64,000 nt of DNA, taken from the NCBI GenBank assembly GCA_963708045.1, contig OY970181.1:195740-259739 (forward strand), written 5' to 3'. How positions within the stretch are numbered: position 1 is the stretch's first letter; each line of letters starts with the position of its first letter. The stretch is from an uncultured bacterium (GTDB lineage Bacteria > Patescibacteriota > Patescibacteriia > CAIQCM01). The notes under the pieces are model-generated. The model worked only from the letters and a program-made list of their open reading frames with translations. It ran no database searches and had not been told where the DNA came from. Made by a program: the position numbers and the translations under genes. Shown piece after piece: positions 19,701-56,815 of this stretch.

Positions 19701-22700
19701 TATTCGCGCCCGAGGTCGTGATTGTCGCTCCGTTATCATAAGCTTCTTGAAGCGTTGTCGCGCCCGCGGTATCGCAATCTTTCCAAGCAATATTTTCAAA
19801 ACAACGGAATTTATTCGCGTTAGCGTTATAGTACATCGCGCCAACTGATCCCGTGGGGTCGCCGGCGCTAGATTTTATGTCGGTAACCAAAAGGTCAGGT
19901 GTGGTCACGCCGGCACCAGAACCGATTTGAACATTTGCAGTCTGCCCCGCGCCCGCAACTTGCAGTGAAAGATTTCCCGCGCTCGTGCCCCAGGTAGCGG
20001 CGGCGGCAGAAGTAAGCGTTAAGGCACCGGATGATGATTGCCAAGTTGCCGCGCCGGCCGAAGTAATATTCATTGAGCCCGCAGCAGTCAAAATTGTTGA
20101 TGTACCAAGTGAAACCGTGCCCGAACCAGCTTGGAGCGTTAAATTTCCGGCTGAAGTTGACCAGGTTGAAGCCACGCCAGCGGTAACGGTAATGGCCGCG
20201 CCCGAGACAACACCAATCGCGCCAGCCGCCCCACTCCCAATTGTCACCGTTCCCGTGGACGTTCCATTATTAATATTTGTATTAAAATTTGACGAAGAGT
20301 TTAAATTAACCGCCGCGCCCGTAACATTCAAACCAAGCGAGCCAGTAAGCAGTTGACTCGCGGTTAAGGCGCCGTTTATTGTTGTGGTTATTCCGCTTCG
20401 CGAAATGGAAATTGCCGAGGCATTCGTCGTGCCAACGTTCACCGTTCCCGCCGTACCCGTCGCCGTTCCCGCGTCAATCGTGACGTTACCAGAATTTGAT
20501 GTTGCCCCACCAGCATTTCCCGTAACAAGCGACACGGCGGCGGAATTGGTAGAGCCGGCGGTTTGATTTAAAGTTTTTAATGTAAGGGTGCCGGTGCTTC
20601 CCGAAGAAATCGTTGTCGTTTGGGCAAAAGTTAGGTTGCCCAGATTATCAATCCGCGCGCGTTCAACCGGCGAACCGACATTAAGCGTTTCAAAACGGAT
20701 CGCGCCGGTTTCGGCGCCTGGCGTCACGTTGGTAAGAATTCCAGAAAGCCGCGCGGCCGGGACTTCGGTGCCAATATTATTTTGCGCGCGCAAAAGCATT
20801 CCCACGCCAAGACCGGCAGCCGGCGTGCCCGAGGTTGCATGTTCCAAAACAAGAACGTCGGAAATGTCGTTATTGATCGCGTCTTCTTGTTCCACATAAA
20901 GCTTAGTACCAGTATGCGGCGTACTAGTTCCAAGGCTAAGCTGTTTACTCGCGTTGTCCCAGTAAAATTCATTATCGCCCGTTTGCGTATTTGATCCGTT
21001 CCAAAAAGAAACTTGTCCGGACGTACCTGTACCCGACACACTCGCGCCGCCAGCGCAGTCAATCCAAGCATTATCAATGTAGCAGCGAAAAGTTTTAGTA
21101 ACCGTATTATAATAGGTGGCGCCGTTGGTTGACGGCGGGGTGGCGGGGTCGGAGGCTTTGTTTGAAAAAATTAAAAGCGACGAGTTGGCAATTTTAATAT
21201 TTCTTGTCGCCGAAAGATTAAGGTCGGTTGTTGCGTCAGAGTTTGTAATTGTGTTTGTTCCAGCAGCAAACGTAAGCGTGCCTGATGAAGAAGAAAGTGA
21301 AAGCGCCGCGCCGCCGCCAGACGAAACCGCGAGTGCCCCAGTACTTGCAAGCGAACTACCCGAGAGTGTTGTCGCGCCAGTAACTAGACTTGTGCCAAAA
21401 TAACCCGTGCGCCAGCGATTTCCACTCGCGCCAACATCCAAAGCATTATCGGTTGTACCAGGTTGAAGCGTGCCCACTTCGGTGATGCGCAATTGTTCGG
21501 TCAGAACGCCGCCGCCCACGCGCGTAAAGAAACCAAGCATTGAATCTTCGGTGCCATTTGCGGTGTTGGTTAAGACTGCAGAAATACCACCGCTATCGGC
21601 GAGCGCGCCAGCATCATTTTCATTTCTAAATAAAAGATTTGAACCAATACCGTTTCCGGCCACGGCGGTCGTGGTGTGATCAAGCACAAGAACGGTTGAT
21701 GAATTATTATTAACCGCGTCATCCAACGAAATATCGGCCTTGGTTCCGGCGGGCGGTGCAGTGGCGCCAATTTGCAACTGATCGGCGAAATTTTTCATTT
21801 GATTAATGAGCCCGACTTCGGTCCACGTTCCCAAACAATCTTGCCAAACACCGGCTTTATAGCAACGGAATTTATCATCAGCAGAATTGTAATACATCGC
21901 GCCGTTAACACCACTTGGATCGCCGGAAGTTGATTTGGCGTCCATAACCAATAGATCAGGCGTTGCCGATGGCGCACCCGTTCCAATCTGGATATTTCCC
22001 GTTCCGGAACCGGCAGCAATGAACGAAAGGTTACCTGCCAAAGTTCCCCAAGTGGCGGCCGAAGCCGAAGTTAACGTAAGCGCGCCGGCGGAAGTTGACC
22101 AGGTAGAAGTTGCACCGGCGGTGAATGTCAGCGCACCGGCGGAAGTGAATTGCGACGCGGCGGTTGGCGTAAGGTTAACAGCGCCCGTGCCGGTCGCGTT
22201 AAAGTCGCCCGAAGTTAAGGTGAAAAGAATCGGCGTTGATGACGAGGTTGTTACCGAAGCGCCAGCGTTATAAGCCGTCTGAAGCGTTGTCGTGCCGCCC
22301 GTCGTATCACAGTCTTTCCACCCTCCACCTTCGTAACAGCGAAATTTTGCGGCTATGGAATTGTAATACATGGCGCCGTTCGCGCCCCCCGCAGGATCGC
22401 CAGCGTTTGATTTCAAATCAACAACCAATAAATCAGGCGTTGTTGATCCTCCGGCGCCGATTTGAACATCGGCCGTCACTCCAGTTCCAGCCGCCTGCAA
22501 AGAAAGATTTCCAGCCGACGTTCCCCAAGTTGAAGCCGCGCCGGCGGTAAAAGTGAGCGCACCGGCCGAAGTAAATTGCGAGGCGGCTGTCGGCGTAAGG
22601 TTAACCGCGCCGGTGCCAGTGGCGTTAAAGTCGCCCGAAGTTAAGGTGAAAAGAATCGGCGTTGATGAACCGGTAATAATCGCGTTTCCATTATTATATG

Positions 22701-25700
22701 CCGTTTGTAAATTAACCGTGCCGCCTGTTGTGTCACAGTCGGACCACGAACCGTTTAAATAACAACGAAATTTATTTGTAGCTGAGCTGTAGTAAATAGC
22801 GCCATCCACGCCAGACGGATCAGCAAGCTGACTTCCCAAAACCAACAAATTTGAATCATCTATTTTTGTGTTAGCCGTTGCTTTCAAAATTATATCCGTC
22901 GTTGCGTTGGTGTTAGATATCGTATTAGTACCAGCGGCGAGTTTCAAAATTCCCGAACCCGAATCAAGCGAAAGGTCGCCACTCGTCGTTCCCCAAGTTG
23001 AGGCCGCGCCGGCGGTAAAGGTGAGTGCACCAGCCGAAGTAAATTGCGAGGCGGCGGTTGGCGTGAGATTAACAGCGCCGGTGCCGGTCGCATTAAAGTC
23101 GCCCGAGGTTAAAGTGAAAAGAATCGGCGTCGATGACGAGGTCGTAATTGAACTGCCGTTATCGTACGCACTTTGCAAAGTAGTCGCGCCTGAAGTATCG
23201 CAATCTTTCCAACTGATATTTTCATAGCAACGGAATTTATTAAGGTTAACATTATAGTACATTGCGCCAACCGATCCCGTTGGATCGCCGGCATTTGATT
23301 TTAAATCAACAACCAAAAGATCGGGCGTGACTGATCCAGCGCCAGAACCGATTTGAATATTCGCAGTTGTCCCGCTTCCGGCTGGCTGAAAAACTAGATT
23401 ACCCGTTGCCGTGGCAAGCGAACCATCAGCCAGGGTCGTGTTTGCGTTCACAATCGCGCTTGTGCCAAGATATGCTGTACGCCAAACATTTCCCGTTGCG
23501 CCGATGTCTTCGGCGTTGCTGGTCAAAGCTGGCAACAAGCCAGCGGCTGTTATACGCAGGCGTTCGGTCGCGGCCCCGCCGCCGGTTCTAGTTTCAAAAC
23601 TTATTGCCGAGGCTTCAGCGCCCGAGGCCGCGTTGGTAAGAAGGGCATTAATGTGCCCGACGTTGGTTATGGAACCGGCGTCATTTTCGCTCCTAAAATT
23701 TATTCCCAATCCAATCCCCGCCGCCGCCGTTCCGCTAGTCGTATGATCAATCGTCACGACATTTGAAATATCGTTAGCCGTCGCGTCGTCGGAAACGATC
23801 TGTAGTTTGGTGTCTGCAACTGGCGACGCCGTACCAATACCAACCTGATCAGAAATAGTGGTAAGCCGCGTAACGCCGCTCGCGCTTATAAAAGCGCCAA
23901 CTGCGCAGCCGCCCCAGACTCCGTTTAAATAACAGCGCATTTGATTTGTCGCGGTGTTGTAGTACATCGCGCCGTTTGTCGCGGGCGGCGAAGCTGGGTC
24001 AGCTGCTTTTGATGACATCACAACAAGCGACGAATCGGCGATCTTCACGTTGCGCTGACTGCCGATAATAAGGTCGGTGCCAACGTCGGTGTTTGACAAA
24101 GAATTTGATCCGGCACCCAAAGAAACCGTACCCGAGCTGGAAGCAAGGCTTAGCCCACCAGTCGCATTGACCGTAAACGAACCAGTTGAAGTTACAGAGC
24201 TGCCGGCATAAGTTGCTGAACCGATTACGACGCTCGTTCCAAAATAACCCGTGCGCCAGCGATTTACCGCCGAACCAATATCCTGACCATTGTCGCTCGC
24301 GCCAGGAATAAGAAAACCCTGATCATCTATACGCAAGCGCTCGGTGAGCGGACCGCCAGCCGTGCGTGTTTGAAAAGTAAAAGCGCTATCTTGCGCGCCC
24401 GAAGTCACATCGGTAAGAATTGAAGTTATGCGACCGCTTAAACTTGGAGTACCAACACTGTTTTCCGCGAGAAAAACCAAACCGTTGCCAATTCCGTTTG
24501 CCGCCGCTCCTGTCGTTGAATGAACAAAAGCGCCAACGTCGGTATAAGTATTATTTGCCGTGTCGTTGACGGAAACAGAAAGCGGTGCCGTTGTCGTGTT
24601 TGTTCCAATGCCTAAATGTTTGGTCGTGTTATCCCAAAACAATCCGCTATCGCCGGTTTGCGAATTTGTCCCATTCCAAAAAGCAACCTGACCAGCAGAA
24701 CCAATACCGGTTACCGTGCCGCCCGTAATGCAATCCATCCACCCGCCACCAGCAAAACAGCGAAACTTATCCGTTGCTGTATCGTAATACATTGCGCCAT
24801 TAACGCCAGTTGGATCGGTTGCTTGTGAGCCCAAAATTAAAGTGTCAGCATCGGCAATTTTTATATCGCCCTCGGCATCAAGCACAAGATTAGTGCCGAG
24901 GTCGGTATTAATAATCGTATTTGTTCCCGCGCCCAAATGTAAAAATCCAGAACCAGCGGTCAAAGAAAGGTCGTTTGCGCCGCCCGAGGCAATTTCTAGC
25001 GCGCCTGTTGCATTAAGGTTGGTAGTGGTTCCCAAAGAAATAATTCCCGACCCGGCCTGCAGAGTTAAGTTGCCAGCGGTCGTGCTCCAAGTAGAAGCAC
25101 CCGCGCCAGTAATTGTTAGCGCGCCTGTACCCGAAGACAAGTTTACCGCGCCTGTGCCAGTGTATGATTGGCCAGGCGCCACGCTTACGCTTCCAGTACC
25201 GGAGAAAGAAATTAAATCAGCGCCGCCGAAAGTTTCAAACCGAACAAGCGGCGCGGTCTGTGTTGAAAATCCTGTTACGGTAAATTGCGTTTCGTCGGCT
25301 GTAGGTACGCCAGCCGTACTTAAATCAGAAAGATAGGCGACGGTACCGGATTCATTTTTAAAAGTAATTGTTCGCGACGAAGTTGGATCGGTAATTGCAA
25401 AAGTTGTTTTGTTGGCGTTTGCCGTTGCTCCGTCAAAAACAAGCGGCGAAGCGCCGAGAATATTTCCTGAAGAAAAGACAATTCCCCCGTTTGCCGTTAA
25501 CGTCGCCGCCGTTGTTAAATCACTTTGAACCGTAGTTGTGATGCCGGTTTTTCCAAGGGTAATCGCCATTGCATTTAAAGTACCGAGGTTAAGGGTTGTT
25601 GCCGAATCCAACGTAAGTGCGCCGGCCGAAGTTGACCACACCGAAGCCGCGCCAGCCGTAAGCGTAAGGGCGCCGGACGAAGTAAATTGCGACGCGCTGG

Positions 25701-26664
25701 TCGGCGTTAAATTTATCGCTCCCGCGCCAGTCGCATTAAAATTTCCGTTTGCCAAATTAAATAAAATCGCATCTCCCCCACTCGTATTAATTGTTTGGCC
25801 ATTATTATAAACCGATTGCAGGGTTGAAGTACCGCCAGTTGTGTCACAGTCAGCCCACGAACCATTTACAAAACAACGAAATTTATTTGTTAGCGTATTG
25901 TAATATGTCTGACCATTAACACCCGACGGATCAGCGACAGCCGAGCCCAAAATTAAACCGCCGCCGATTGTCGTGAGCATTCCCGCGCTACCCAAATTTA
26001 CATTTTGCGTTAGCGTTAAATTTCCCGAGGCGTCGGTAACCGGCACAAACGCCGAGGCGCCGCCGACAGCCGACGTGCCAAATGAATTTAATTTCAAACT
26101 ATTTAACGATTGATATACCGCCGACATCCGCGTGCGCGGTGTCATTTCGGCATCGGTATTAATTTTTAAACCCAAGTAACGACTGTCGTCGGAAAATATC
26201 GCGTCTGGCAAATTATTTTGTCCGCCCGAAGTTGAGTCGCCTAAAAGTACAGAAAATAATCCATTAGTAACACCGACCGATACCGTCCCAAGCAACCCGC
26301 AATCAGTCGTATTTGCGTTTGCATCAGTATCAGCCGCTGACCAAACACAGGTGCCGCCCGAAGCAGAATCGTAAATAGCGATCTGCATATTGTAAGTTCC
26401 ATTTGCAACATTGCTTCCAGCTGTATCAGTCAACCGTCCTTGGTAATTTAAAAGTCTAACAACACCACTTGCACCAAAGGCCGGCTTAGCAATTCCAAAA
26501 AATAGTGAAGAAAAAATTAAAAACGACAAAACAAAACCAGACCAAGCCGCGCGGCGCGCACTTGGCAAAAAATGTTTCAATGTATTTTTAAAATTCATTG
26601 AATTTGTCTGTTTTTTTATAAACAACAGAACAAATAATTTCTCTGGTCGGTTTATAACAACCAA
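16795..26664 (-). CDS. giant secreted/surface repeat protein (3289 aa)
   Basis: Single uninterrupted ORF. N-terminal signal/TM. Very Gly/Thr/Ser/Ala/Asn-rich with many internal repeats (recurrent ...DPSGVNGAMYYN...KFRCY.NG.W.DCDT.GGT... modules). Globular C-terminal domain followed by a Pro/Thr/Glu-rich tail. Confidence 0.8.
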   Translation of the reverse strand: MVVINRPEKLFVLLFIKKQTNSMNFKNTLKHFLPSARRAAWSGFVLSFLIFSSLFFGIAKPAFGASGVVRLLNYQGRLTDTAGSNVANGTYNMQIAIYDSASGGTCVWSAADTDANANTTDCGLLGTVSVGVTNGLFSVLLGDSTSGGQNNLPDAIFSDDSRYLGLKINTDAEMTPRTRMSAVYQSLNSLKLNSFGTSAVGGASAFVPVTDASGNLTLTQNVNLGSAGMLTTIGGGLILGSAVADPSGVNGQTYYNTLTNKFRCFVNGSWADCDTTGGTSTLQSVYNNGQTINTSGGDAILFNLANGNFNATGAGAINLTPTSASQFTSSGALTLTAGAASVWSTSAGALTLDSATTLNLGTLNAMAITLGKTGITTTVQSDLTTAATLTANGGIVFSSGNILGASPLVFDGATANANKTTFAITDPTSSRTITFKNESGTVAYLSDLSTAGVPTADETQFTVTGFSTQTAPLVRFETFGGADLISFSGTGSVSVAPGQSYTGTGAVNLSSGTGALTITGAGASTWSTTAGNLTLQAGSGIISLGTTTNLNATGALEIASGGANDLSLTAGSGFLHLGAGTNTIINTDLGTNLVLDAEGDIKIADADTLILGSQATDPTGVNGAMYYDTATDKFRCFAGGGWMDCITGGTVTGIGSAGQVAFWNGTNSQTGDSGLFWDNTTKHLGIGTNTTTAPLSVSVNDTANNTYTDVGAFVHSTTGAAANGIGNGLVFLAENSVGTPSLSGRITSILTDVTSGAQDSAFTFQTRTAGGPLTERLRIDDQGFLIPGASDNGQDIGSAVNRWRTGYFGTSVVIGSATYAGSSVTSTGSFTVNATGGLSLASSSGTVSLGAGSNSLSNTDVGTDLIIGSQRNVKIADSSLVVMSSKAADPASPPATNGAMYYNTATNQMRCYLNGVWGGCAVGAFISASGVTRLTTISDQVGIGTASPVADTKLQIVSDDATANDISNVVTIDHTTSGTAAAGIGLGINFRSENDAGSITNVGHINALLTNAASGAEASAISFETRTGGGAATERLRITAAGLLPALTSNAEDIGATGNVWRTAYLGTSAIVNANTTLADGSLATATGNLVFQPAGSGTTANIQIGSGAGSVTPDLLVVDLKSNAGDPTGSVGAMYYNVNLNKFRCYENISWKDCDTSGATTLQSAYDNGSSITTSSSTPILFTLTSGDFNATGTGAVNLTPTAASQFTSAGALTFTAGAASTWGTTSGDLSLDSGSGILKLAAGTNTISNTNATTDIILKATANTKIDDSNLLVLGSQLADPSGVDGAIYYSSATNKFRCYLNGSWSDCDTTGGTVNLQTAYNNGNAIITGSSTPILFTLTSGDFNATGTGAVNLTPTAASQFTSAGALTFTAGAASTWGTSAGNLSLQAAGTGVTADVQIGAGGSTTPDLLVVDLKSNAGDPAGGANGAMYYNSIAAKFRCYEGGGWKDCDTTGGTTTLQTAYNAGASVTTSSSTPILFTLTSGDFNATGTGAVNLTPTAASQFTSAGALTFTAGATSTWSTSAGALTLTSASAATWGTLAGNLSFIAAGSGTGNIQIGTGAPSATPDLLVMDAKSTSGDPSGVNGAMYYNSADDKFRCYKAGVWQDCLGTWTEVGLINQMKNFADQLQIGATAPPAGTKADISLDDAVNNNSSTVLVLDHTTTAVAGNGIGSNLLFRNENDAGALADSGGISAVLTNTANGTEDSMLGFFTRVGGGVLTEQLRITEVGTLQPGTTDNALDVGASGNRWRTGYFGTSLVTGATTLSGSSLASTGALAVSSGGGAALSLSSSSGTLTFAAGTNTITNSDATTDLNLSATRNIKIANSSLLIFSNKASDPATPPSTNGATYYNTVTKTFRCYIDNAWIDCAGGASVSGTGTSGQVSFWNGSNTQTGDNEFYWDNASKQLSLGTSTPHTGTKLYVEQEDAINNDISDVLVLEHATSGTPAAGLGVGMLLRAQNNIGTEVPAARLSGILTNVTPGAETGAIRFETLNVGSPVERARIDNLGNLTFAQTTTISSGSTGTLTLKTLNQTAGSTNSAAVSLVTGNAGGATSNSGNVTIDAGTATGTAGTVNVGTTNASAISISRSGITTTINGALTASQLLTGSLGLNVTGAAVNLNSSSNFNTNINNGTSTGTVTIGSGAAGAIGVVSGAAITVTAGVASTWSTSAGNLTLQAGSGTVSLGTSTILTAAGSMNITSAGAATWQSSSGALTLTSAAAATWGTSAGNLSLQVAGAGQTANVQIGSGAGVTTPDLLVTDIKSSAGDPTGSVGAMYYNANANKFRCFENIAWKDCDTAGATTLQEAYDNGATITTSGANIAYTLTSGNFNATGAGAVNLTPTSASQFTSGGALTLTAGAASTWSTSSGALTLTAGAASTWSTLVGALTVDSASALNLGTSGATSVSLGKTGITTTNNGALTVTQTLTANGNITLSSGNVTGASPLSFDGATADAVKTIFAITDPTVTSKTITFPNATITVNAAADISGTTLASGVVTSSLTTVGILTSGSIASGFGTIATANTISTSNNISTTGSGTITSAGLLTGNLGLTVSGAAVSLNDNSNFNTSINAGTSTGTVIIGNSSLASIGFTSGTGAQTFTSSNATGVTTASSFVFNDTSLTSGTLLRLNSTSTSGKIVDINFTNTTGTIMNGAYGAATNQGAGALIGLAFDMNANLTAPSAGQNITGFDLKLPTASTTSNATIYNGYNLTTAGAITNGTAGSFLWHGVNVTLPGITQSAGGAVTASGVMVNTGTITTNGTANGVEIAAAGIGAGSLNGLGISNITGGAGTETAINIGAGWDQGLTIGVTPSATTGRTIDVAGNWGGNSLNNVHLTTANDTVTVSTKALVYFLSLCNVTTTCSTGNGTQGAAPTTTFNITGLPNTDGTFAFIETQVQRIGVGGGANENATIIVQVNGTQVSTVTAGAANTNSVVIIENYTIVRANGAWRVVGTPGTADSADLAEWIPYSGDEPVAGELVSLDTNNPVTVVRSSGTDNKKLIGVVSTLPHTTLGKDDGHSVRLALAGRVPVKVSDENGAIGAGDYLTLSSVPGVAMKATSPGFVIGQVLSSANGDDASEAIMLIKNTYYPGDEPALSLVMGRLIDSKDLPNGITSFALDIQAETPHDPIAALIDRINAGAKIAADFVAARVTAIRGYFDETHQRKLCVGDAKTGNETCITKDQLDQLLNSQQNVNAPSAPPAPVPVVNEPVTNTPTPPVEPVTTTPSTEEPVVNEPATDPDTINEPAAESAPPTDEPMPEPTVSEPSAEISPAPQAEPTPTETIPVSQE

Positions 26665-44371: not shown

Positions 44372-44438
44372 CGGTCGCCTCCCTTGTTCTTCGTTTCCTC
44401 TAAAGCTAATTGCGTCTTATCTAAATTACGATAAAAAG

Positions 44439-45317
44439 TCAACTATTTGTACTAGACGGGTACATCGGTAACAAGTGCTCGTGCTTGTAGATGAAATTGA
44501 TCGGTGACATATACCCCAGGGTTTGGTGCGGCCGACGGAAGTTGTATTCGATCAGCCACTCAGTGAGCCGTCGGTTGAATTCGGCGCAGTCGTCGGTCAT
44601 GTTCCCGAGCTGAACAAACTCCTCTTGTAGGGTTCGGTTGAACCGTTCGTTCGTCGCGTTGTCCTTGGGTGTTTTGATCCGCGAATGATATTGGGGAATA
44701 TTTAGAGCAAGACACGCGTCAGCAAACCGTCCCTTGAACTCGCTGCCGTTGTCATGCCCAACGTTCTCTATCTTCCCATCAACGAGATGATGGAGGCGAT
44801 AAAGAAAATCGCGAGAATTTGATGAACTCTTTGACGTATACATCCGGGCAAAAGCTAGTTTAGAGTGTTTGTCGATGGCGGTGAAGATGAAACGCTTCTT
44901 GCTTTTCCAATAAATAACGACGGTATCGAGGCAGAGTAGAAACCCCGATCGTTTCTTGGTCTTGAGGTCGGTGATCTTCTTGCGTTTAACACTATTCTTT
45001 CGTTTTTTGTTGATCCTGGCTTGTTTTATTGGGTGGTAATAGAGACGGTACTTCTCAATAGTCTTCTGCACCTTCCACTCAGAAATGATCTCGTGATATT
45101 CTGTGTTATAGAGAGTGGCGATCTTCGCTTTTCCATAGCGGATATGCGTCCTCTTCAACGAAATGATTCGTTCAGCTTGGAGCGGGGTAATGGCCCGCTC
45201 TTTGCGTTTCTTGGGGGTACGATCAAGTTCTTCAAGGGTGCGGAGGTTGGCATCGTTAAAGCGTTTCTTCCATTTCCAAAAGGTCTTGGGGGCGATGCCA
45301 AAATGACGAGCCGTCAA
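44439..45317 (-). CDS. DDE (rve-family) transposase
   Basis: HTH FGIAPKTFWKWKKRF. DDE region DTV...HDNGSEF...NERFNRTL. 292 aa. The stop codon lies in the flank outside the IS end. Confidence 0.8.
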   Translation of the reverse strand: MTARHFGIAPKTFWKWKKRFNDANLRTLEELDRTPKKRKERAITPLQAERIISLKRTHIRYGKAKIATLYNTEYHEIISEWKVQKTIEKYRLYYHPIKQARINKKRKNSVKRKKITDLKTKKRSGFLLCLDTVVIYWKSKKRFIFTAIDKHSKLAFARMYTSKSSSNSRDFLYRLHHLVDGKIENVGHDNGSEFKGRFADACLALNIPQYHSRIKTPKDNATNERFNRTLQEEFVQLGNMTDDCAEFNRRLTEWLIEYNFRRPHQTLGYMSPINFIYKHEHLLPMYPSSTNS

Positions 45318-45577
45318 AAGAGCGTTGCCGCCGTGCTCCTCGTGCCAAAGGAACCAATCTAGTCAACGTCTAGCGGGAACGGAGATGCCGATCAGGTCGG
45401 CGACGGCGCGAAGGCGCGCCCGACGCGATTTAGTTAAAACGATACCGGGTTTGAAATACCCGCCGGTGTGGAACCAACGAAGCGTATGATTGCTCATAGA
45501 AAGATGAGTTAGATGGGTAACAGTCTCATTTTAACCCCATTCGAGGAGTGTTACCGATGTATCTCATCTTCTCCACT
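44448..45577 (-). mobile_element. insertion sequence copy 1 (~1.13 kb, rve/DDE transposase, IS481/IS3-like), 3-bp TSD ATT
   Basis: Near-identical to 51001-52131. Flanked by att|IS|att. Target ...gtcaact|att. Subterminal inverted repeats around tacatcggtaaca. Confidence 0.8.
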
Positions 45578-46775: not shown

Positions 46776-46928
46776 AAATAATTAAGAGATAAGATTTAGG
46801 AATTAAGAAAACGGTTATACGTTTCTTAATTCCTAATTCATAAATCTTAAATCTAATTAACGTGGCCCCCAAACAATATGATCTCTCGCAAGATGCGGGA
46901 AGTCAGCTGTTTGCGGGTCAAAAAATAT

Positions 46929-49172
46929 ATGACCCAGAAAGAATTTTCTATAGAGTGGGGCGGCCGAACGCTCACACTCTCTACCGGCTTACTCGCCAAA
47001 CAAGCGACCGCTTCGGTTGAAGCGCGCTATGGCGACACCGTTGTTCTCGCGACCGTCGTTCTCGGCGGCATTCGCGACGGCATTGATTATTTTCCGCTAA
47101 TGGTTGATTTTGAAGAGCGTCTTTACGCCGCCGGCAAAATCAAATCTTCCCGCTTTATTAAGCGCGAAGGCAAACCAAGCGACGAAGCGGTTTTAACCGG
47201 TCGTCTGATTGACCGTTCCATTCGTCCGCTTTTCCCGTGGGAATTAAAAAACGAAGTACAAGTAACGGTTACTTGTTTGTGCTATGACGAAGAAAACGAT
47301 CCCGCCACCTTGGGACTTATTGCCGCTTCGGCCGCGCTTCATATTTCGCGCATCCCGTGGATGGGACCGATCGGCGCTTCACGCATTAGCCGCGCCGAAG
47401 GCAAACTTATTTTAAACGCCTCGCTTATTAACCGCGACGCGGGTGATCTGGACATCGTTGTTGCTGGCACCAAAGACAAACTCATCATGGCCGAAGCGGG
47501 CGCCAAAGAAGTTTCCGAAGACGACGCCGTCGCTTCGGTTCGTTTTGGTTTAGAAGCCAACGCCGCGGTGGTTGAACTGATAGAAAAAATGCGCAAAGAA
47601 ATTGGCGTGCCTAAAGTTGACGTCAACGAATTAAATAACGAAACCGACGAAATTGTTGCCGCTAAAAAGCAAGCCTACGAAACGACGCGCGCTTTCTTAA
47701 TGCCAAAAATTGAAGAGCTTTTCTTTAACGCGCCCAAAGCCGACAAGGTTGAACGCGCCACGGCTAAAAAGAAGTTGCACGAACTTTTGGAAGCCGAACT
47801 TGAAACAAAAACTGCTGACGACGATGCGCGCAAACTCGCGCACTCGCAAGTTGAAGAAGTTATTGAAGAAGCGGTGACGACGGCGATTTTGGAAAAAAAC
47901 CGCCGCGTTGACGGACGAAAAATTGACGAGGTGCGCACGCTTGCGTCCAAAGTTGGTTTGCTTCCGCGCACGCACGGTTCGGGACTTTTTGAGCGCGGCG
48001 ACACGCAAGTTTTGTCGGTCGTTACTTTGGGCGGTCCGGGCGACGCGCAAATTTTGGACGGAATGGAACAGGCCGATCTTAAAAAGCGTTACATGCACCA
48101 CTACAACTTCCCTGGCTATTCGGTCGGCGAAGCTAAACCCAACCGCGGCCCGGGTCGCCGCGAAGTCGGCCATGGCGCTTTGGCTGAACGCGCGCTAGAG
48201 CCAGTTCTTCCGACCGTTGATAAATTTCCTTACGTCATCCGCGTTGTTTCCGAAGTCCTTGGCTCAAACGGTTCGTCCTCAATGGCCTCGGCTTGCGGTT
48301 CAACCCTCGCGCTTATGGATGCGGGCGTGCCGATTACAGCGCCGGTTGCCGGCGTCGCGATGGGCATTGCGACCCGCCACGGTTCCGATGAATACAAAAT
48401 CATTACCGACCTTCAGGATTTGGAAGACGGCATCGGCGGAATGGACTTTAAAATCTGCGGCACCAAAAAAGGCATTACCGCGATTCAAATGGACACCAAA
48501 ACGCTCGGCCTTTCAATGAAAATCGTTGAAGAAACTTTTGCCAAAGCCAAGGATGGCCGAATGAAAATTTTGGAAGTAATGGAAAAATGTTTGGCCGCGC
48601 CGCGCGCCGAACTTTCGGCTTGGGCGCCGCGCATTGAAACGATTATGATCAATCCGGAAAAAATCCGCGACGTGATCGGACCCGGCGGCAAGATGATTAA
48701 TAAAATTATTGCCGAAACCGGCGCGACAATTGACGTTGAAGATGATGGCCGCGTCACCGTTACCTGCGCCAAGCCAGAAGGAATGAAGAAGGCTGTTGAG
48801 TGGATCAAGATGCTAACGAAAGAAGTCGTGGTCGGCGAAATTTATCGCGGCAAAGTTGTCCGCACAATGGACTTTGGCGCGTTTGTGGAACTCACACCAA
48901 ACCAAGACGGCATGGTGCACATTTCCCAACTCGCCCCATGGCGCGTTAACCGCATTGAAGACGTCGTCCACATTGGCGACGAAGTGCCAGTTAAAGTAAT
49001 TGAAATTGATGAAATGGGTCGCGTTAACTTGTCGGTAAAAGCCGCGCGCGAGGAATTAAAAGAAGCACAATTCGTAATGCCGGAAGGCTACGAGTCGGCG
49101 CCGCAGGCGCCACGCAGCCCGCGCCCAAGTTTTGGCGGCGGCTCTCGCGGCGGCCACGGCGGACGAAGATAA
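46929..49172 (+). CDS. pnp: polynucleotide phosphorylase
   Basis: Two RNase PH domains, then KH (GPGGKMINKIIAETG) and S1 (GKVVRTMDFGAFVEL) domains. The start is trimmed to MTQKEF. Confidence 0.9.
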   Translation: MTQKEFSIEWGGRTLTLSTGLLAKQATASVEARYGDTVVLATVVLGGIRDGIDYFPLMVDFEERLYAAGKIKSSRFIKREGKPSDEAVLTGRLIDRSIRPLFPWELKNEVQVTVTCLCYDEENDPATLGLIAASAALHISRIPWMGPIGASRISRAEGKLILNASLINRDAGDLDIVVAGTKDKLIMAEAGAKEVSEDDAVASVRFGLEANAAVVELIEKMRKEIGVPKVDVNELNNETDEIVAAKKQAYETTRAFLMPKIEELFFNAPKADKVERATAKKKLHELLEAELETKTADDDARKLAHSQVEEVIEEAVTTAILEKNRRVDGRKIDEVRTLASKVGLLPRTHGSGLFERGDTQVLSVVTLGGPGDAQILDGMEQADLKKRYMHHYNFPGYSVGEAKPNRGPGRREVGHGALAERALEPVLPTVDKFPYVIRVVSEVLGSNGSSSMASACGSTLALMDAGVPITAPVAGVAMGIATRHGSDEYKIITDLQDLEDGIGGMDFKICGTKKGITAIQMDTKTLGLSMKIVEETFAKAKDGRMKILEVMEKCLAAPRAELSAWAPRIETIMINPEKIRDVIGPGGKMINKIIAETGATIDVEDDGRVTVTCAKPEGMKKAVEWIKMLTKEVVVGEIYRGKVVRTMDFGAFVELTPNQDGMVHISQLAPWRVNRIEDVVHIGDEVPVKVIEIDEMGRVNLSVKAAREELKEAQFVMPEGYESAPQAPRSPRPSFGGGSRGGHGGRR

Positions 49173-50922: not shown

Positions 50923-50991
50923 TTGTTCACCTCGCGTTTTCGTAAAAAGAGCTATAACCTGCTAACTGTTTAATTGTTTTCCGCACTTATG

Positions 50992-51870
50992 TCAACTCTG
51001 TGTACTAGACGGGTACATCGGTAACAAGTGCTCGTGCTTGTAGATGAAATTGATCGGTGACATATACCCCAGGGTTTGGTGCGGCCGACGGAAGTTGTAT
51101 TCGATCAGCCACTCAGTGAGCCGTCGGTTGAATTCGGCGCAGTCGTCGGTCATGTTCCCGAGCTGAACAAACTCCTCTTGTAGGGTTCGGTTGAACCGTT
51201 CGTTCGTCGCGTTGTCCTTGGGTGTTTTGATCCGCGAATGATATTGGGGAATATTTAGAGCAAGACACGCGTCAGCAAACCGTCCCTTGAACTCGCTGCC
51301 GTTGTCATGCCCAACGTTCTCTATCTTCCCATCAACGAGATGATGGAGGCGATAAAGAAAATCGCGAGAATTTGATGAACTCTTTGACGTATACATCCGG
51401 GCAAAAGCTAGTTTAGAGTGTTTGTCGATGGCGGTGAAGATGAAACGCTTCTTGCTTTTCCAATAAATAACGACGGTATCGAGGCAGAGTAGAAACCCCG
51501 ATCGTTTCTTGGTCTTGAGGTCGGTGATCTTCTTGCGTTTAACACTATTCTTTCGTTTTTTGTTGATCCTGGCTTGTTTTATTGGGTGGTAATAGAGACG
51601 GTACTTCTCAATAGTCTTCTGCACCTTCCACTCAGAAATGATCTCGTGATATTCTGTGTTATAGAGAGTGGCGATCTTCGCTTTTCCATAGCGGATATGC
51701 GTCCTCTTCAACGAAATGATTCGTTCAGCTTGGAGCGGGGTAATGGCCCGCTCTTTGCGTTTCTTGGGGGTACGATCAAGTTCTTCAAGGGTGCGGAGGT
51801 TGGCATCGTTAAAGCGTTTCTTCCATTTCCAAAAGGTCTTGGGGGCGATGCCAAAATGACGAGCCGTCAA
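50992..51870 (-). CDS. DDE (rve-family) transposase
   Basis: Identical to the copy-1 protein except the last residues (TQS vs TNS), which are flank-encoded. An upstream overlapping 80-aa HTH-like ORF (51809-52051) is intact only in this copy. Confidence 0.8.
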   Translation of the reverse strand: MTARHFGIAPKTFWKWKKRFNDANLRTLEELDRTPKKRKERAITPLQAERIISLKRTHIRYGKAKIATLYNTEYHEIISEWKVQKTIEKYRLYYHPIKQARINKKRKNSVKRKKITDLKTKKRSGFLLCLDTVVIYWKSKKRFIFTAIDKHSKLAFARMYTSKSSSNSRDFLYRLHHLVDGKIENVGHDNGSEFKGRFADACLALNIPQYHSRIKTPKDNATNERFNRTLQEEFVQLGNMTDDCAEFNRRLTEWLIEYNFRRPHQTLGYMSPINFIYKHEHLLPMYPSSTQS

Positions 51871-52131
51871 AAGAGCGTTGCCGCCGTGCTCCTCGTGCCA
51901 AAGGAACCAATCTAGTCGAACGTCTAGCGGGAACGGAGATGCCGATCAGGTCGGCGACGGCGCGAAGGCGCGCCCGACGCGATTTAGTTAAAACGATACC
52001 GGGTTTGAAATACCCGCCGGTGTGGAACCAACGAAGCGTATGATTGCTCATAGAAAGATGAGTTAGATGGGTAACAGTCTCATTTTAACCCCATTCGAGG
52101 AGTGTTACCGATGTATCTCATCTTCTCCACT
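51001..52131 (-). mobile_element. insertion sequence copy 2, 3-bp TSD CTG
   Basis: Flanked by ctg|IS|ctg. Target ...gtcaact|ctg. 1-nt indel relative to copy 1 in the region upstream of the transposase start. Confidence 0.8.
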
Positions 52132-54233: not shown

Positions 54234-54510
54234 GCCAACCCCACAACCAAAAGCATTCTCAAAGACAAACGGCGTACACTTTATTGGCGTTTCGTCTCTA
54301 CCCGAACCCGTGCCATAAACGGTTCGTTCTTAAAATGAATTATGATTGGCTCAAACATTAGACAACCTCCTTGTTTTCAATTGTAATGTCCGTTAAAGCT
54401 CACCAAAATCCGTCGCTTTAATATCGTCTTGTATCATTAAAATATCTTCGCGTCAATAATCTTCACTGCGAACTGACTATTGAAAAACGGGGGAATGTGG
54501 TAATAATTAC

Positions 54511-55254
54511 TTGTTAACAATGTTTGACTTTGCCTCAAAAAAAGAAGCGACCATAACCGTAGCCCTGGCGGCGTTTTTTGTTTTGGTCACGATCGGGTTT
54601 ACTTTTGAACCGCTCGCGACGGTTATCTTAAAATCACGCGACCTACCGCAAGAAACTGTCCTTTTGGCGAAAATTTTAGCTGACACTAGCAACGAACAAA
54701 TATTAGCAGACGGAAAAATGCTCTTGGGCGAAAAAGGCGTGGTTTTTAAAGAGGGGGAAACATTAAAACGAAGCGTGAACGCTTTGCTTTCATCGGTTAC
54801 TGGCGAACGAACCCTGAACATTATTACTCAAAGCGCCGGCGCCTTGCCCGTCACTTTAACGCTTTCTGGAAAAACTAACGAAGAATATGCAGCAAAACCG
54901 CTAGTTAAATTGATTGCCGCCTATGAAAATCCTTCGGAAAACCGCATAACAATGCCAGATAATACAACTTACATTGAATTTGTCGCTGATCCTGACAAGG
55001 CCAATCCAACCAAGCTCCCTATTCCACTTTCAATAAACACCCACGAAGATATCACCACAATATCCACAAGCAAAAATCCGCTAGAAAAAGCAAATAAATA
55101 CTTATCACCACTTAGCTGTGAAGAACTCCCCTCAGGCACAAAAATCATAAATTTCGCTAAAAATAGGGATTATTTCTTGAGAAACGTGCTTTTTTCAACA
55201 AAGCAATATTTAGCTAATTTTGAATGTTTCCAGAGTTTTTCCACATTTCATTAA
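54511..55254 (+). CDS. hypothetical secreted/membrane-anchored protein
   Basis: N-terminal TM ITVALAAFFVLVTIGFTF. AT-rich native composition. 247 aa. Confidence 0.45.
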   Translation: MLTMFDFASKKEATITVALAAFFVLVTIGFTFEPLATVILKSRDLPQETVLLAKILADTSNEQILADGKMLLGEKGVVFKEGETLKRSVNALLSSVTGERTLNIITQSAGALPVTLTLSGKTNEEYAAKPLVKLIAAYENPSENRITMPDNTTYIEFVADPDKANPTKLPIPLSINTHEDITTISTSKNPLEKANKYLSPLSCEELPSGTKIINFAKNRDYFLRNVLFSTKQYLANFECFQSFSTFH

Positions 55255-55394
55255 ATTTCTTGAGAAAAAAGGGGGATAACCTTGGGGATAAACTATTGAT
55301 AAGTATTGCCTAACCCTGTGTTTAACTAAGTTTTTAGATTTGTTTGTTAATTTTTTCATCTATTTATAGATGATTTTAGCGCCTGTTCACAGAA

Positions 55395-55423
55395 TTGACG
55401 AAAACCGTTTTTTGTGATATTAT
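55395..55423 (+). promoter_or_regulatory. strong sigma70-like promoter (TTGACG-17-TATTAT)
   Basis: ttgacgaaaaccgttttttgtgatattat. Confidence 0.55.
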
Positions 55424-55429
55424 ATATAT

Positions 55430-55752
55430 GTACTCAAGAGAGTGCATTGTTCTTTAGAGAAGTTCCTCAGTCCCTCATAAAGAGACGGAGAAATATCTTT
55501 CACCTGTACTGATTCCATCAACGGAATACATAAGTTGATCTGGAGGCTCCCAAAAGAATCGCTTTGGCGATTCGGGAAAAACCTCCACGGATTCGGTAAA
55601 GGTGATCGCACTACGGCCTGTGCTATCATCAACGAGCATTCCCACCATAAACCTGAGCAATCGGATTTATAGTGGGGATGCCCTTGTGGGCAAGGGCCGA
55701 AAGGCCCAGCAGACTTTGAAACCATATTATAGTCCAGCTAGGGCCTTTTTTT
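55430..55752 (+). ncRNA. candidate structured non-coding RNA (~320 nt), family unidentified
   Basis: Promoter upstream. No plausible ORF on either strand. Internal perfect hairpins (gcccttg...caagggc) and a GAAA-tetraloop helix (gggccgaaaggccc). A terminal hairpin + T-run ends at 55752. Confidence 0.45.
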
Positions 55753-55944
55753 ATTGAAAAATTTTCAACTTGTTTGGGCGATTGACTATATCGCGCCCAA
55801 AGGATAATATTGAATATACCTAAGGAACGAGACAAAACTCTGTTCGCAGAGCTTTTTCGTGCGTTGCTCAGGAGTTTGTAAATAATTAATCTTAAAATCA
55901 CGTCGCGTTTTGTCTTTACTGACCTTAAACGTCGTGTTACAGCT

Positions 55945-56322
55945 ATGGCTCTTAGCGCCAAAACCTTAAAAGAAATAGAAACAAAACTTTTAGAAGAAAA
56001 AACTAAGCTTGAAAACGAGCTCGGCCAAATTTCTACAAAGAACACAAAAAACCCGACTGACTATCAGGCAAATTTTCCCGACTTCGGAAGTTCTGAAGAC
56101 GAAAACGCCGCCGAGGTCACCACCTTTACCGACAACCTTACTTTAGAGAGGACGCTTGAAGCAGCACTCCGCGACACCAACAAAGCCTTGGAAAGCATTA
56201 AGACGGGAAAATACGGCACCTGCAAATATTGCGAAAAAGAAATTGACGAAAAACGTTTGCTCGCGCGACCAGCTTCTTCTTCTTGCATTGATTGCAAAAA
56301 GCGTTTGACTTTAGAAAGTTAA
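55945..56322 (+). CDS. DksA/TraR-family C4 zinc-finger protein
   Basis: Coiled-coil N-terminus. CKYCEKEI...SSCIDCK zinc finger. Own promoter TTGACT-17-TAATAT at 55782-55810. Confidence 0.65.
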   Translation: MALSAKTLKEIETKLLEEKTKLENELGQISTKNTKNPTDYQANFPDFGSSEDENAAEVTTFTDNLTLERTLEAALRDTNKALESIKTGKYGTCKYCEKEIDEKRLLARPASSSCIDCKKRLTLES

Positions 56323-56326
56323 TTTT

Positions 56327-56815
56327 ATGTCGTGGAAACGGACACTTGCCGTTTCTTGCGCCTTGCTTGCGGTTGTTTTTGACCGCTTCCTAAAATGGCA
56401 CTCATTTGCCGCGCTCCCTGGGGAGGGCGCGGTTTTGTTTCCGGGTTTTGATTATAAATATTTTTTAAATACCGGACTAACTTTTTCCCTATTCAATAAC
56501 CCGCTCGCGATTACCGCTTCGCTCGTTGCCGCCGTCGCGCTAACTGTTTGGTTGGTTTATAAAATTAAACGCGAGCCAAACTGGTTTGCTTTGCCAACAA
56601 ATATGATCGGCGTTCTGCTTGTTGCTTTGGGCGGCGCGAGCAATTTGTTTGATCGGTTTTATTTTCACGGCGTTATTGATTACCTACTTTTCTTTTCTCG
56701 GTCTGCGTGGAATATCGCAGATATCATGATCCTCGCAGGAATTTTGTTTCTCATTCTGAAACGAGATTCCAAAGGCGGTTTTTCCGACAACGAGCGTTTA
56801 GCGGATAGCGGATAG
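56327..56815 (+). CDS. lspA: lipoprotein signal peptidase II
   Basis: Four TM helices. FDRFYFHGVIDYL and WNIADIMI motifs. Confidence 0.75.
   Translation: MSWKRTLAVSCALLAVVFDRFLKWHSFAALPGEGAVLFPGFDYKYFLNTGLTFSLFNNPLAITASLVAAVALTVWLVYKIKREPNWFALPTNMIGVLLVALGGASNLFDRFYFHGVIDYLLFFSRSAWNIADIMILAGILFLILKRDSKGGFSDNERLADSG

Follow-up and report, generated by a model that had tools for sequence, protein, structure and literature searches.

An independent non-coding RNA gene of ~325 nt, conserved and structured, was shown to occupy positions ~55430–55752 (+ strand) of a 64,000-nt stretch of DNA from an uncultured bacterium of the Patescibacteriota (GenBank assembly GCA_963708045.1, contig OY970181.1, positions 195,740–259,739 of the forward strand; the whole stretch is referred to here as the window). 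The gene belongs, as a diverged member, to a large family of structured RNAs in Patescibacteria for which Rfam 15 has no entry. The evidence favours a novel family over a divergent form of a known RNA, the two options that had been left side by side when the locus was first predicted from the sequence of the window. What appears to be new lies at the level of the RNA class or family, and a demonstrated new mechanism is not meant. The original prediction, a structured RNA of ~320 nt with its own promoter and terminator, was borne out by conserved signals, strong covariation and the lack of a conserved reading frame; it had missed a boxA-like element, a cluster of DnaA boxes and the membership in a large family. 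Patescibacteria (candidate phyla radiation, CPR) represent a large share of bacterial diversity, and since their genomes are tiny and the organisms almost all uncultured, each of their conserved genes is informative.

A conserved and structured transcription unit

The selection acting on the RNA is most clearly visible in the close relatives of the window. In genomes whose DksA is 66–92% identical to that of the window, the genes encoding polynucleotide phosphorylase (PNPase) and a protein named here X are followed by a gap of ~600 nt and then by dksA, lspA and comM, and in seven close relatives this gap aligns with the window, promoter and terminator included. The eight distinct sequences (the window and seven relatives) were aligned with MAFFT in the ordinary way, and the structure obtained with RNAalifold comprises 91 pairs in 10 helices, with 93.5% of cells paired, a percentage inflated by the use of one alignment both to derive the structure and to count the pairs. 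Double changes were observed in 42 of the 91 pairs, compared with 21.9 ± 3.1 in column shuffles, none of which (0/500) reached 42, while slid controls, in which the partners were shifted by 1–3 columns, gave 7–16 compensatory pairs. The compensatory counts are far above both the shuffled and the slid controls, and the only explanation that can be given for such strong covariation, which had been proposed as a check of the prediction, is selection on the RNA.

The folding energy is consistent with these data. The minimum free energy of 55430–55760 is −129.5 kcal/mol, compared with −84.9 ± 5.3 kcal/mol in dinucleotide shuffles (z = −8.5). The strand is not given by folding energy alone, because the reverse strand reaches a similar value (z = −7.6); the + strand is fixed by the many G–U pairs, which would be A–C mismatches on the opposite strand, and by the promoter and terminator.

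The near-consensus sigma-70 promoter that had been proposed (TTGACG-17-TATTAT) is present. It matches the consensus at 10 of 12 positions and is the best promoter-like site in the region 54500–56500, where seven such sites were found and 2.9 were expected; a single match of this kind is not significant alone. The same element, TTGACn-17-TAnnnT, occurs at the equivalent position in 48 of 50 related loci, and the promoter is conserved in alignments A1 and A3. The sequence places the predicted transcription start near G55430. At the 3′ end, the hairpin and T-run that terminate the unit at 55752 were confirmed, and the helix covaries in relatives: among the close relatives, terminator helices H9 and H10 comprise 13 pairs, eight of them compensatory. 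A terminator-like GC stem with a T-run lies 3′ of the RNA in 43 of 50 loci. A simple terminator scanner missed the terminator of the window because its loop is long.

Searches for known RNAs left the family without a name, as had been anticipated. Rfam 15 (4227 models), with which a comparison had been recommended, was run at gathering thresholds and down to E = 10. In the whole 64-kb window it recognized four tRNAs and nothing else, and nothing credible was found in 55200–56000 at E ≤ 10 with lax filters. Over the window, 20 genome loci, the well-conserved locus L017 and 13 metagenome loci, Rfam returned tRNAs and chance microRNA-type matches only, and ARAGORN detected four tRNAs and no tmRNA in the window. 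Nothing relevant describing this RNA family was found in the literature searched, where a string search with boxA variants returned noise only.

Fold of the RNA

The fold supported by the comparative data is a series of local domains (Table 1). The 5′ hairpin H1, which shows one compensatory pair (CG, UA, GC) and variable loops, takes the position of the boxB hairpin in rrn leaders. The central domain is closed by H3, which contains a family-invariant ACU/GGU core with a U·G wobble; in the family this closing helix reads ...CUUCUUUACU / GGUAGAGRAG..., and the window forms it as UCACCUGUACUGA / UCGGUAAAGGUGA. The loop of hairpin H-A is, in most relatives, the strictly conserved, A-rich, 15-nt sequence AAAACAAAAACAAAA. 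The window keeps the hairpin and has lost the motif, as have L001, L005 and L093; the motif is present in L009, L089, L094, L091 and the majority of the distant members. Pairing of the A-rich loop with the U-rich 3′ tail was rejected on inspection, as C would face C.

Table 1. Features of the RNA gene and its immediate surroundings, in window coordinates
Feature	Position	Strand	Details
DnaA-box-like sequences	55237–55291	+	TTTTCCACA 55237–55245; GGGGGATAA 55271–55279 (2 mismatches); TGGGGATAA 55283–55291
Sigma-70-type promoter, extended −10	55395–55423	+	TTGACG 55395–55400; 17-nt spacer; TATTAT 55418–55423; TG 55415–55416
H1, 5′ hairpin	55429–55446	+	GUACUC-AAGA-GAGUGC; 7 pairs; 94.6% of cells paired
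boxA-like element	55448–55461	+	UGUUCUUUAGAGAA; core UGUUCUUUA at 55448–55456; invariant, unpaired columns in A5
H2, long imperfect hairpin	55457–55499	+	AGAGAAGUUCCUCAGUCCC...GAGACGGAGAAAUAUCUUU; 13 pairs, 6 compensatory; 94.2% of cells paired
Central three-way-junction domain	55500–55605	+	H3 enclosing hairpins H-A and H-B
H3, long-range closing helix	55500–55515 with 55590–55605	+	14 pairs, 6 compensatory; 98.2% of cells paired
H-A hairpin	~55518–55540	+	AUCAAC-GGAAUACAUAA-GUUGAU; inside H3
H-B hairpin	~55543–55586	+	GGAGG...CCUCC; inside H3
3′ domain	55613–55700	+	Outer helix H7 enclosing H8
H7	55613–55632 with 55684–55700	+	16 pairs, 8 compensatory
H8, long hairpin	55636–55656 with 55661–55681	+	UUCCCACC...GGUGGGGAU; 17 pairs, 11 compensatory
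Intrinsic terminator	55701–55752	+	AAGGCCC-AGC...GCU-GGGCCUU; inner stem AGAC/GUC(U); T7 at 55746–55752
dksA-lspA promoter-like site	55782–55810	+	TTGACT-17-TAATAT; conserved in L001–L006, alignment A1; not part of the RNA

Four GGCC-containing segments of the RNA have alternative pairings (ACGGCC at 55613, GGGCCGA at 55694, AAGGCCC at 55701 and GGGCCUU at 55741). The GNRA-tetraloop helix of the original prediction, GGGCC-GAAA-GGCCC at ~55693–55706, does exist in the sequence, but probably lies outside the native fold, as both of its arms are better paired elsewhere: in the comparative data GGGCCGA pairs with ACGGCC (H7) and AAGGCCC with GGGCCUU (terminator), and the GNRA hairpin excludes both the covarying H7 and the terminator stem. 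Of the eight close-relative sequences only five can form it; L009, L089 and L093 cannot. A role for it as a structural element or antiterminator was rejected since it is not conserved.

A large family in Patescibacteria

Judged by its DksA homologues, the window belongs to Patescibacteria and lies close to Uhrbacteria. Scanning one genome per species with a DksA alignment provided 80 Patescibacteria loci, which include Uhrbacteria, Magasanikbacteria, Falkowbacteria, Veblenbacteria, Paceibacter, ‘Parcubacteria’ and Minisyncoccota, and most of which have a 600–700-nt gap with shared motifs upstream of dksA. One-pass nhmmer retrieved close relatives only. Iterated nhmmer linked 74 of 89 regions upstream of dksA and was not relied on alone because the model crept into the flanks, and a covariance model of the central domain (R1) was therefore built. 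From a broad MAFFT alignment of this domain RNAalifold had obtained no more than the closing helix, owing to misalignment of the inner hairpins, a problem that was solved by deriving R1 from one coherent subgroup of 14 sequences, with the window clade excluded.

At E ≤ 0.01, R1 recognized 45 loci, all on the + strand and nearly all 250–500 nt upstream of dksA. Five close relatives of the window (L009, L091, L089, L094 and L001) scored about 53–31 bits, and in the 64-kb window, with filters off, the best match was 55491–55606 (+), with 20.3 bits and E = 0.022. In a 44-sequence alignment of the R1 domain (21 pairs), 93.7% of cells are paired and 14 of the 21 pairs are compensatory, compared with 9.4 ± 1.6 after shuffling; the covariation score is 0.387 versus 0.171, and 0/500 shuffles reach the observed score.

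Metagenome contigs were also scanned with a DNA pattern, independently of dksA, which gave 33 stretches. R1 confirmed 18 of these, all near dksA or comM and 17 near dksA itself; 14 look like chance matches, with neither an R1 match nor dksA. Phage-borne copies were rejected, since neither of two pattern matches in viral contigs was confirmed by R1. A model of the 3′ domain of the window clade (R2) gave weak matches in distant loci, all on the + strand and directly after the R1 match; because the matches outside the window clade are weak, family-wide homology of the 3′ domain is provisional. A variant subgroup (L051, L055, L077, L083 and L084) has a central domain of the form …CCCAACUUCUUCnCGGGUAAC…CUGGGGCUCUGCCCACAAGCGGUUAGGGU and a 5′ GUAGUUCAUUCUACA hairpin, ~400–500 nt upstream of dksA. 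R1 misses this subgroup at E ≤ 1, and it may form a subfamily of its own.

The family RNAs are 320–400 nt long. The window copy has the family promoter with its 17-nt spacer, the DnaA boxes, the terminator and the gene order pnp–X–RNA–dksA, and differs in the loss of the A-rich motif, the lack of a second GUUCUUU motif and the degeneracy of its DnaA boxes.

The boxA-like element and the DnaA boxes

Between H1 and H2 lies a single-stranded sequence, UGUUCUUUA, that resembles the boxA of rrn operons. The rrn boxA of E. coli is UGCUCUUUA, followed by a spacer in UGCUCUUUAACAAUUUA (PMC2724277), and a consensus used for genome searches is GYTCTTTAANA, with a critical C at position 4 (Baniulyte 2017). 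Compared with these references, the window element shares 8 of its 9 positions with the E. coli boxA, the Y position being the sole difference, fits the first 8 positions of the search consensus, contains C4 and is found unpaired shortly after the promoter. Variants in the family include AGCUCUUUA (L009), GGUCUUUAACAAC (L013), which has 10 consecutive bases in common with the E. coli boxA and spacer, GUUCUUUAAAA (L082), a perfect fit to GYTCTTTAANA, and also GUUCAUUGAAAAC and GAUCUUUGACAAC. In nearly all loci the best boxA match is found 2–24 nt from the predicted start, and a score of at least 10/12 was reached in 35 of 48 loci and in 10% of shuffles.

In 26 of 50 loci the junction is directly followed by a second GUUCUUU-type motif. 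The 5′ boxA-like element and the post-junction copy of L081 (2023–2300) have a 13-nt sequence in common (GCUCUUUGACCUC and GUUCUUUGACCUC), with the extension GACCUC, and the two copies resemble the boxA duplication seen in rrn leaders and spacers. L088 (1083–1500) has two GYUCUUU-type copies without the extension common to the L081 copies.

Upstream of the promoter, family loci carry 2–6 copies of TGTGGATAA and, after these, an AT-rich stretch. The 260 nt preceding the RNA promoter contain at least two matches to TGTGGATAA (one mismatch allowed) in 46 of 50 loci, and the density of DnaA boxes there is ~12 per kb, compared with 0.22 per kb elsewhere in the loci (~55-fold enrichment). The window copies are degenerate, two of them having at most one mismatch, and are followed by an AT-rich stretch at 55300–55390. 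The cluster lies ~100–260 nt upstream of the RNA promoter in, for example, L029, L042, L054, L059, L068, L070, L075 and L083, and no dnaA gene adjoins it.

Proposed function

On balance, we favour the reading in which the gene, as an independent and diverged member of the family, encodes a stable RNA that acts in trans and is probably made by Nus-modified RNA polymerase. Transcription would be driven by the sigma-70 promoter and, as this is preceded by the DnaA-box cluster, may be modulated by DnaA. The nascent RNA would first form a short hairpin and then expose the single-stranded boxA-like element, which, by analogy with rrn leaders, could recruit NusB/NusE and other Nus factors. Such recruitment would allow the untranslated, structured transcript to be made processively and protected from Rho like ribosomal RNA, and the Nus factors might also help it to fold. 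Transcription would stop at the intrinsic terminator, and the product, composed of H2, the three-way junction with its conserved closing helix, the 3′ domain and the terminator hairpin, would act as a protein-binding scaffold or sponge. In most relatives the A-rich loop could be the docking site of a single-strand-binding protein. This loop cannot be the core function because it is lost in several members, including the window, and the core function must accordingly lie in the junction and the 3′ domain.

Several points weigh against this reading. The start, end and stability of the RNA are all deduced from sequence. The R1 score of the window is modest (20.3 bits, E = 0.022), the 44-sequence alignment (A9) was fitted to the model and so leans towards its structure, and the 3′ domain is weakly detectable outside the window clade. 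The boxA interpretation has about even odds: the motif is short and was recognized post hoc, the sequences scored had themselves contributed to the scoring consensus, and the comparison was made with E. coli and the search consensus. In L017 and L021, AAAGAAC or CUGAAAG in the vicinity can act as pairing partners of the GUUCUUU-type sequences, and for this reason the latter may be strands of helices, not protein sites. NusB/NusE binding and Rho-resistant transcription at the element are suggested by analogy with rrn leaders.

The same analogy may be taken further, to a regulatory decoy that would mimic a pre-rRNA leader and, by means of one or two boxA sites, long helices of the leader-trailer kind and A-rich single strands, would titrate Nus factors (NusB/NusE, the KH domains of NusA) or rRNA-processing enzymes and so tune rRNA synthesis together with the neighbouring DksA, under the control of DnaA. 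In rrn operons the promoter is followed by the boxB hairpin, boxA and boxC, and a second set precedes 23S; for the antitermination complex to assemble, boxA is required and suffices (PMC10250234). The layout of the family RNAs, with a promoter, hairpin, boxA, long-range helix, boxA, long-range helix and terminator, approximates such an operon without its rRNAs (PMC10250234), the boxA-like element stands just after the 5′ hairpin, the second GUUCUUU-type copy follows the junction helix in half of the loci (26/50; those of L081 share GACCUC), linkage to dksA is tight, and the KH domains of NusA bind extended A-containing single strands (PMC2724277). We nevertheless regard the decoy as doubtful: it is argued purely by analogy, the window copy carries a single boxA-like site and no longer has the A-rich loop, in some members (L017) the second ‘boxA’ is part of a helix, and the linkage to dksA is broken in several genomes. 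We likewise attach a rather low probability to a broader form of the idea, a miniature pre-rRNA look-alike made by Nus-modified polymerase under DnaA control, acting as a decoy or as an RNA component or assembly factor of the reduced translation apparatus of Patescibacteria. If true, the look-alike would be a new class of housekeeping RNA specific to a major bacterial radiation.

An important role beyond the known housekeeping RNAs is suggested by the size of the RNA, its several domains, its strong covariation and its own strong promoter, and by the constancy of its genomic address in several candidate phyla. The boxA signal and the DnaA-box cluster may serve as handles on a possible coupling of replication, transcription and ribosome synthesis. 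A covariance model of the family would improve the annotation of thousands of metagenome-assembled genomes and would remove the spurious open reading frame (ORF) calls of ~100 aa at the locus.

Comparison with known RNAs

Among known systems, rrn leaders and operons are similar in having a short hairpin after a strong promoter and then a single-stranded boxA (consensus GYUCUUUAANA), and in being untranslated and highly structured, with long-range helices and an intrinsic terminator; the second boxA-like copy in many relatives corresponds to the spacer boxA upstream of 23S. They differ in that no rRNA gene follows here, the whole unit is 320–400 nt and no boxC was recognized, and rrn promoters are not known to be preceded by a cluster of DnaA boxes.

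The present family is also comparable to OLE, raiA, ROOL, GOLLD and HEARO, large or medium-sized bacterial RNAs whose functions are unknown or just beginning to emerge: it is a stand-alone, multi-domain RNA of several hundred nucleotides, defined by covariation and found in one lineage. It has a conserved neighbourhood with an adjacent uncharacterized membrane or secreted protein, as OLE neighbours oapA. It differs from all five in matching none of them in sequence or structure in Rfam 15, in its Patescibacteria hosts and in its boxA-like element and DnaA boxes. With the CrcZ/CrcY sponges, whose AAnAAnAA motifs bind Hfq/Crc, it shares a single-stranded loop, AAAACAAAAACAAAA, conserved in most members and fitting (AAN)n and AAnAAnAA patterns. 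Unlike the sponges, it has one A-rich loop per RNA, placed within a large conserved fold and lost in the window, L001, L005 and L093.

It is quite improbable that the gene is a highly diverged housekeeping RNA (RNase P RNA, tmRNA, signal recognition particle (SRP) RNA or a 6S/Ms1-like RNA) missed by the Rfam models. The size would suit RNase P RNA or tmRNA, and none of these RNAs was found in the 64-kb window. Class A RNase P RNA is also comparable in its GNRA-type loop, long-range helices and occurrence in CPR, and 10 of 35 complete CPR genomes needed sub-threshold searches for it; once the threshold of the class A model, RF00010, was lowered, every CPR RNase P RNA could still be found (Lui et al. 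2021, PMC8172020). Here RF00010 gave no match at gathering and none at E ≤ 10 with lax filters, either in 55200–56000 of the window or in the better-conserved L017. Neither P4 core motif, GGAAAGUCC (CR-I) or ACAGAA..GGCUUA (CR-V), occurs in the window RNA, and no helix joins its 5′ and 3′ ends. No tRNA-like domain or tag ORF was detected by ARAGORN, and Rfam gave no tmRNA match; the SRP domain IV (helix 8) motif, marked by a GNAR loop and conserved symmetric and asymmetric loops, is absent, with no Rfam SRP match, and the AGCAG that follows GGGCC-GAAA-GGCCC is not conserved in relatives.

The 6S/Ms1 RNAs, which are abundant and bind RNA polymerase, are similar in type, as the family would appear from its sequence to be a stand-alone regulatory RNA gene of the abundant type, with its own promoter and terminator, and the linked gene dksA encodes a transcription factor that acts on RNA polymerase. 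Families of 6S type are hard to find by sequence. However, the RNA is about twice as long as 6S and has no Rfam 6S match, and its covarying fold is a string of modules (H1, H2, junction, 3′ domain and terminator), neither a rod closed by its 5′ and 3′ ends around the large central bubble with which 6S RNA mimics an open promoter nor a P1–P4 core. The absence of RNase P, tmRNA, SRP and 6S signatures noted in the original prediction was thus upheld by Rfam, at gathering and at E ≤ 10, and by ARAGORN.

Gene neighbourhood

The usual gene order in the family is pnp, the fast-evolving protein X, the RNA, dksA, lspA and comM, and the neighbours in the window are a DksA/TraR zinc-finger protein, LspA and a ComM/YifB-type Mg-chelatase-like ATPase. 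The DksA/TraR-family gene and lspA had been named correctly; the upstream gene, described as an orphan membrane protein, is not an orphan, since syntenic homologues exist. This is protein X (54511–55254 (+) in the window, 1645–2379 in L001, 139–1791 in L017 and 516–1877 in L068), which carries a hydrophobic anchor at its N terminus and is matched by no Pfam family; identity is 25–50% in the window clade, with short weak links to versions of 450–550 aa elsewhere. Protein X constantly adjoins the RNA, an arrangement that recalls pairs of an RNA and a membrane protein such as OLE and OapA.

Its position makes the RNA a conceivable cis-acting leader of dksA-lspA-comM, a riboswitch or protein-dependent attenuator operating through the alternative GGCC pairings. 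Most loci have the RNA immediately 5′ of dksA and in the same orientation, and the four GGCC segments of the window allow mutually exclusive pairings (H7, GNRA hairpin, terminator). Such a leader is nonetheless very unlikely. The GNRA alternative is not conserved (L009, L089 and L093), and ~190 nt and a conserved separate promoter separate the RNA terminator from dksA, with a second terminator-like hairpin in the equivalent RNA–dksA spacer of L029. No riboswitch or T-box model of Rfam matched at the locus. Position and strand are not obligatory either: the RNA is inverted (divergent) relative to dksA in L121, stays after pnp in L117 and L124, where comM and dksA are inverted, and is more than 1 kb from dksA, with other DNA between, in L088 and L037. 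Because it is inverted or separated in some genomes, and because dksA has its own promoter, the RNA is not a dksA leader. A hairpin, UUUGGGCGAUUGACUAUAUCGCGCCCAAA, at 55765–55809 overlaps the dksA promoter-like site.

That the locus is chiefly a DnaA-binding DNA element, an origin-like or titration site with an AT-rich unwinding region, which transcription from the promoter would serve and to which the RNA would be secondary, has a similarly slight probability. The ~55-fold box enrichment in 46 of 50 loci and the AT-rich stretch that follows would fit, but the strong RNA covariation is explained only by selection on the RNA, the window boxes are degenerate, and neither dnaA nor dnaN is adjacent. 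The cumulative GC skew of the window has no turning point near 55 kb, and the locus is not a replication origin in this genome. The possibility that the upstream gene is dnaA itself, at an origin locus, was rejected, as the upstream proteins of 450–550 aa have no Pfam match and the GC skew has no turning point.

Coding potential

The statement that no credible ORF lies on either strand has to be qualified, since a 101-aa ATG ORF exists on the minus strand at 55420–55725, and L001 has a stop-free stretch of ~100 aa on the same strand; no coding frame is conserved, however, and a conserved one is what would have refuted the RNA. A small protein is refuted for practical purposes: substitutions relative to L001 over the ORF number 17/29/22 at codon positions 1/2/3, with no third-position excess, all 8 indels relative to L001 break its frame, every frame is interrupted in at least one of the eight sequences of the close-relative set, and the G–U pairs and compensatory changes fit an RNA of the + strand. 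A small ORF after the Shine–Dalgarno-like GAGGAG of helix A′ was rejected, as no start codon follows. On contig CN2HryGn, which bears the DksA of the window, a 57-aa minus-strand gene is called at 2260–2433, inside the RNA locus; this call is probably spurious and caused by the unannotated RNA.

Other features of the window

In the window, pnp (46878–49172) is parted from protein X by an insertion flanked by insertion sequences, while in L002, L003 and L005 pnp is followed (almost) directly by X. Several unannotated minus-strand genes lie between pnp and protein X. The two insertion sequence copies (44438–45577 and 50991–52131) are 99–100% identical and 6.55 kb apart, and each encodes a 292-aa rve-type integrase/transposase (44439–45317 and 50992–51870). 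Giant proteins are common in these genomes, and the window contains a single ORF of 3289 aa at 16795–26664 (−).

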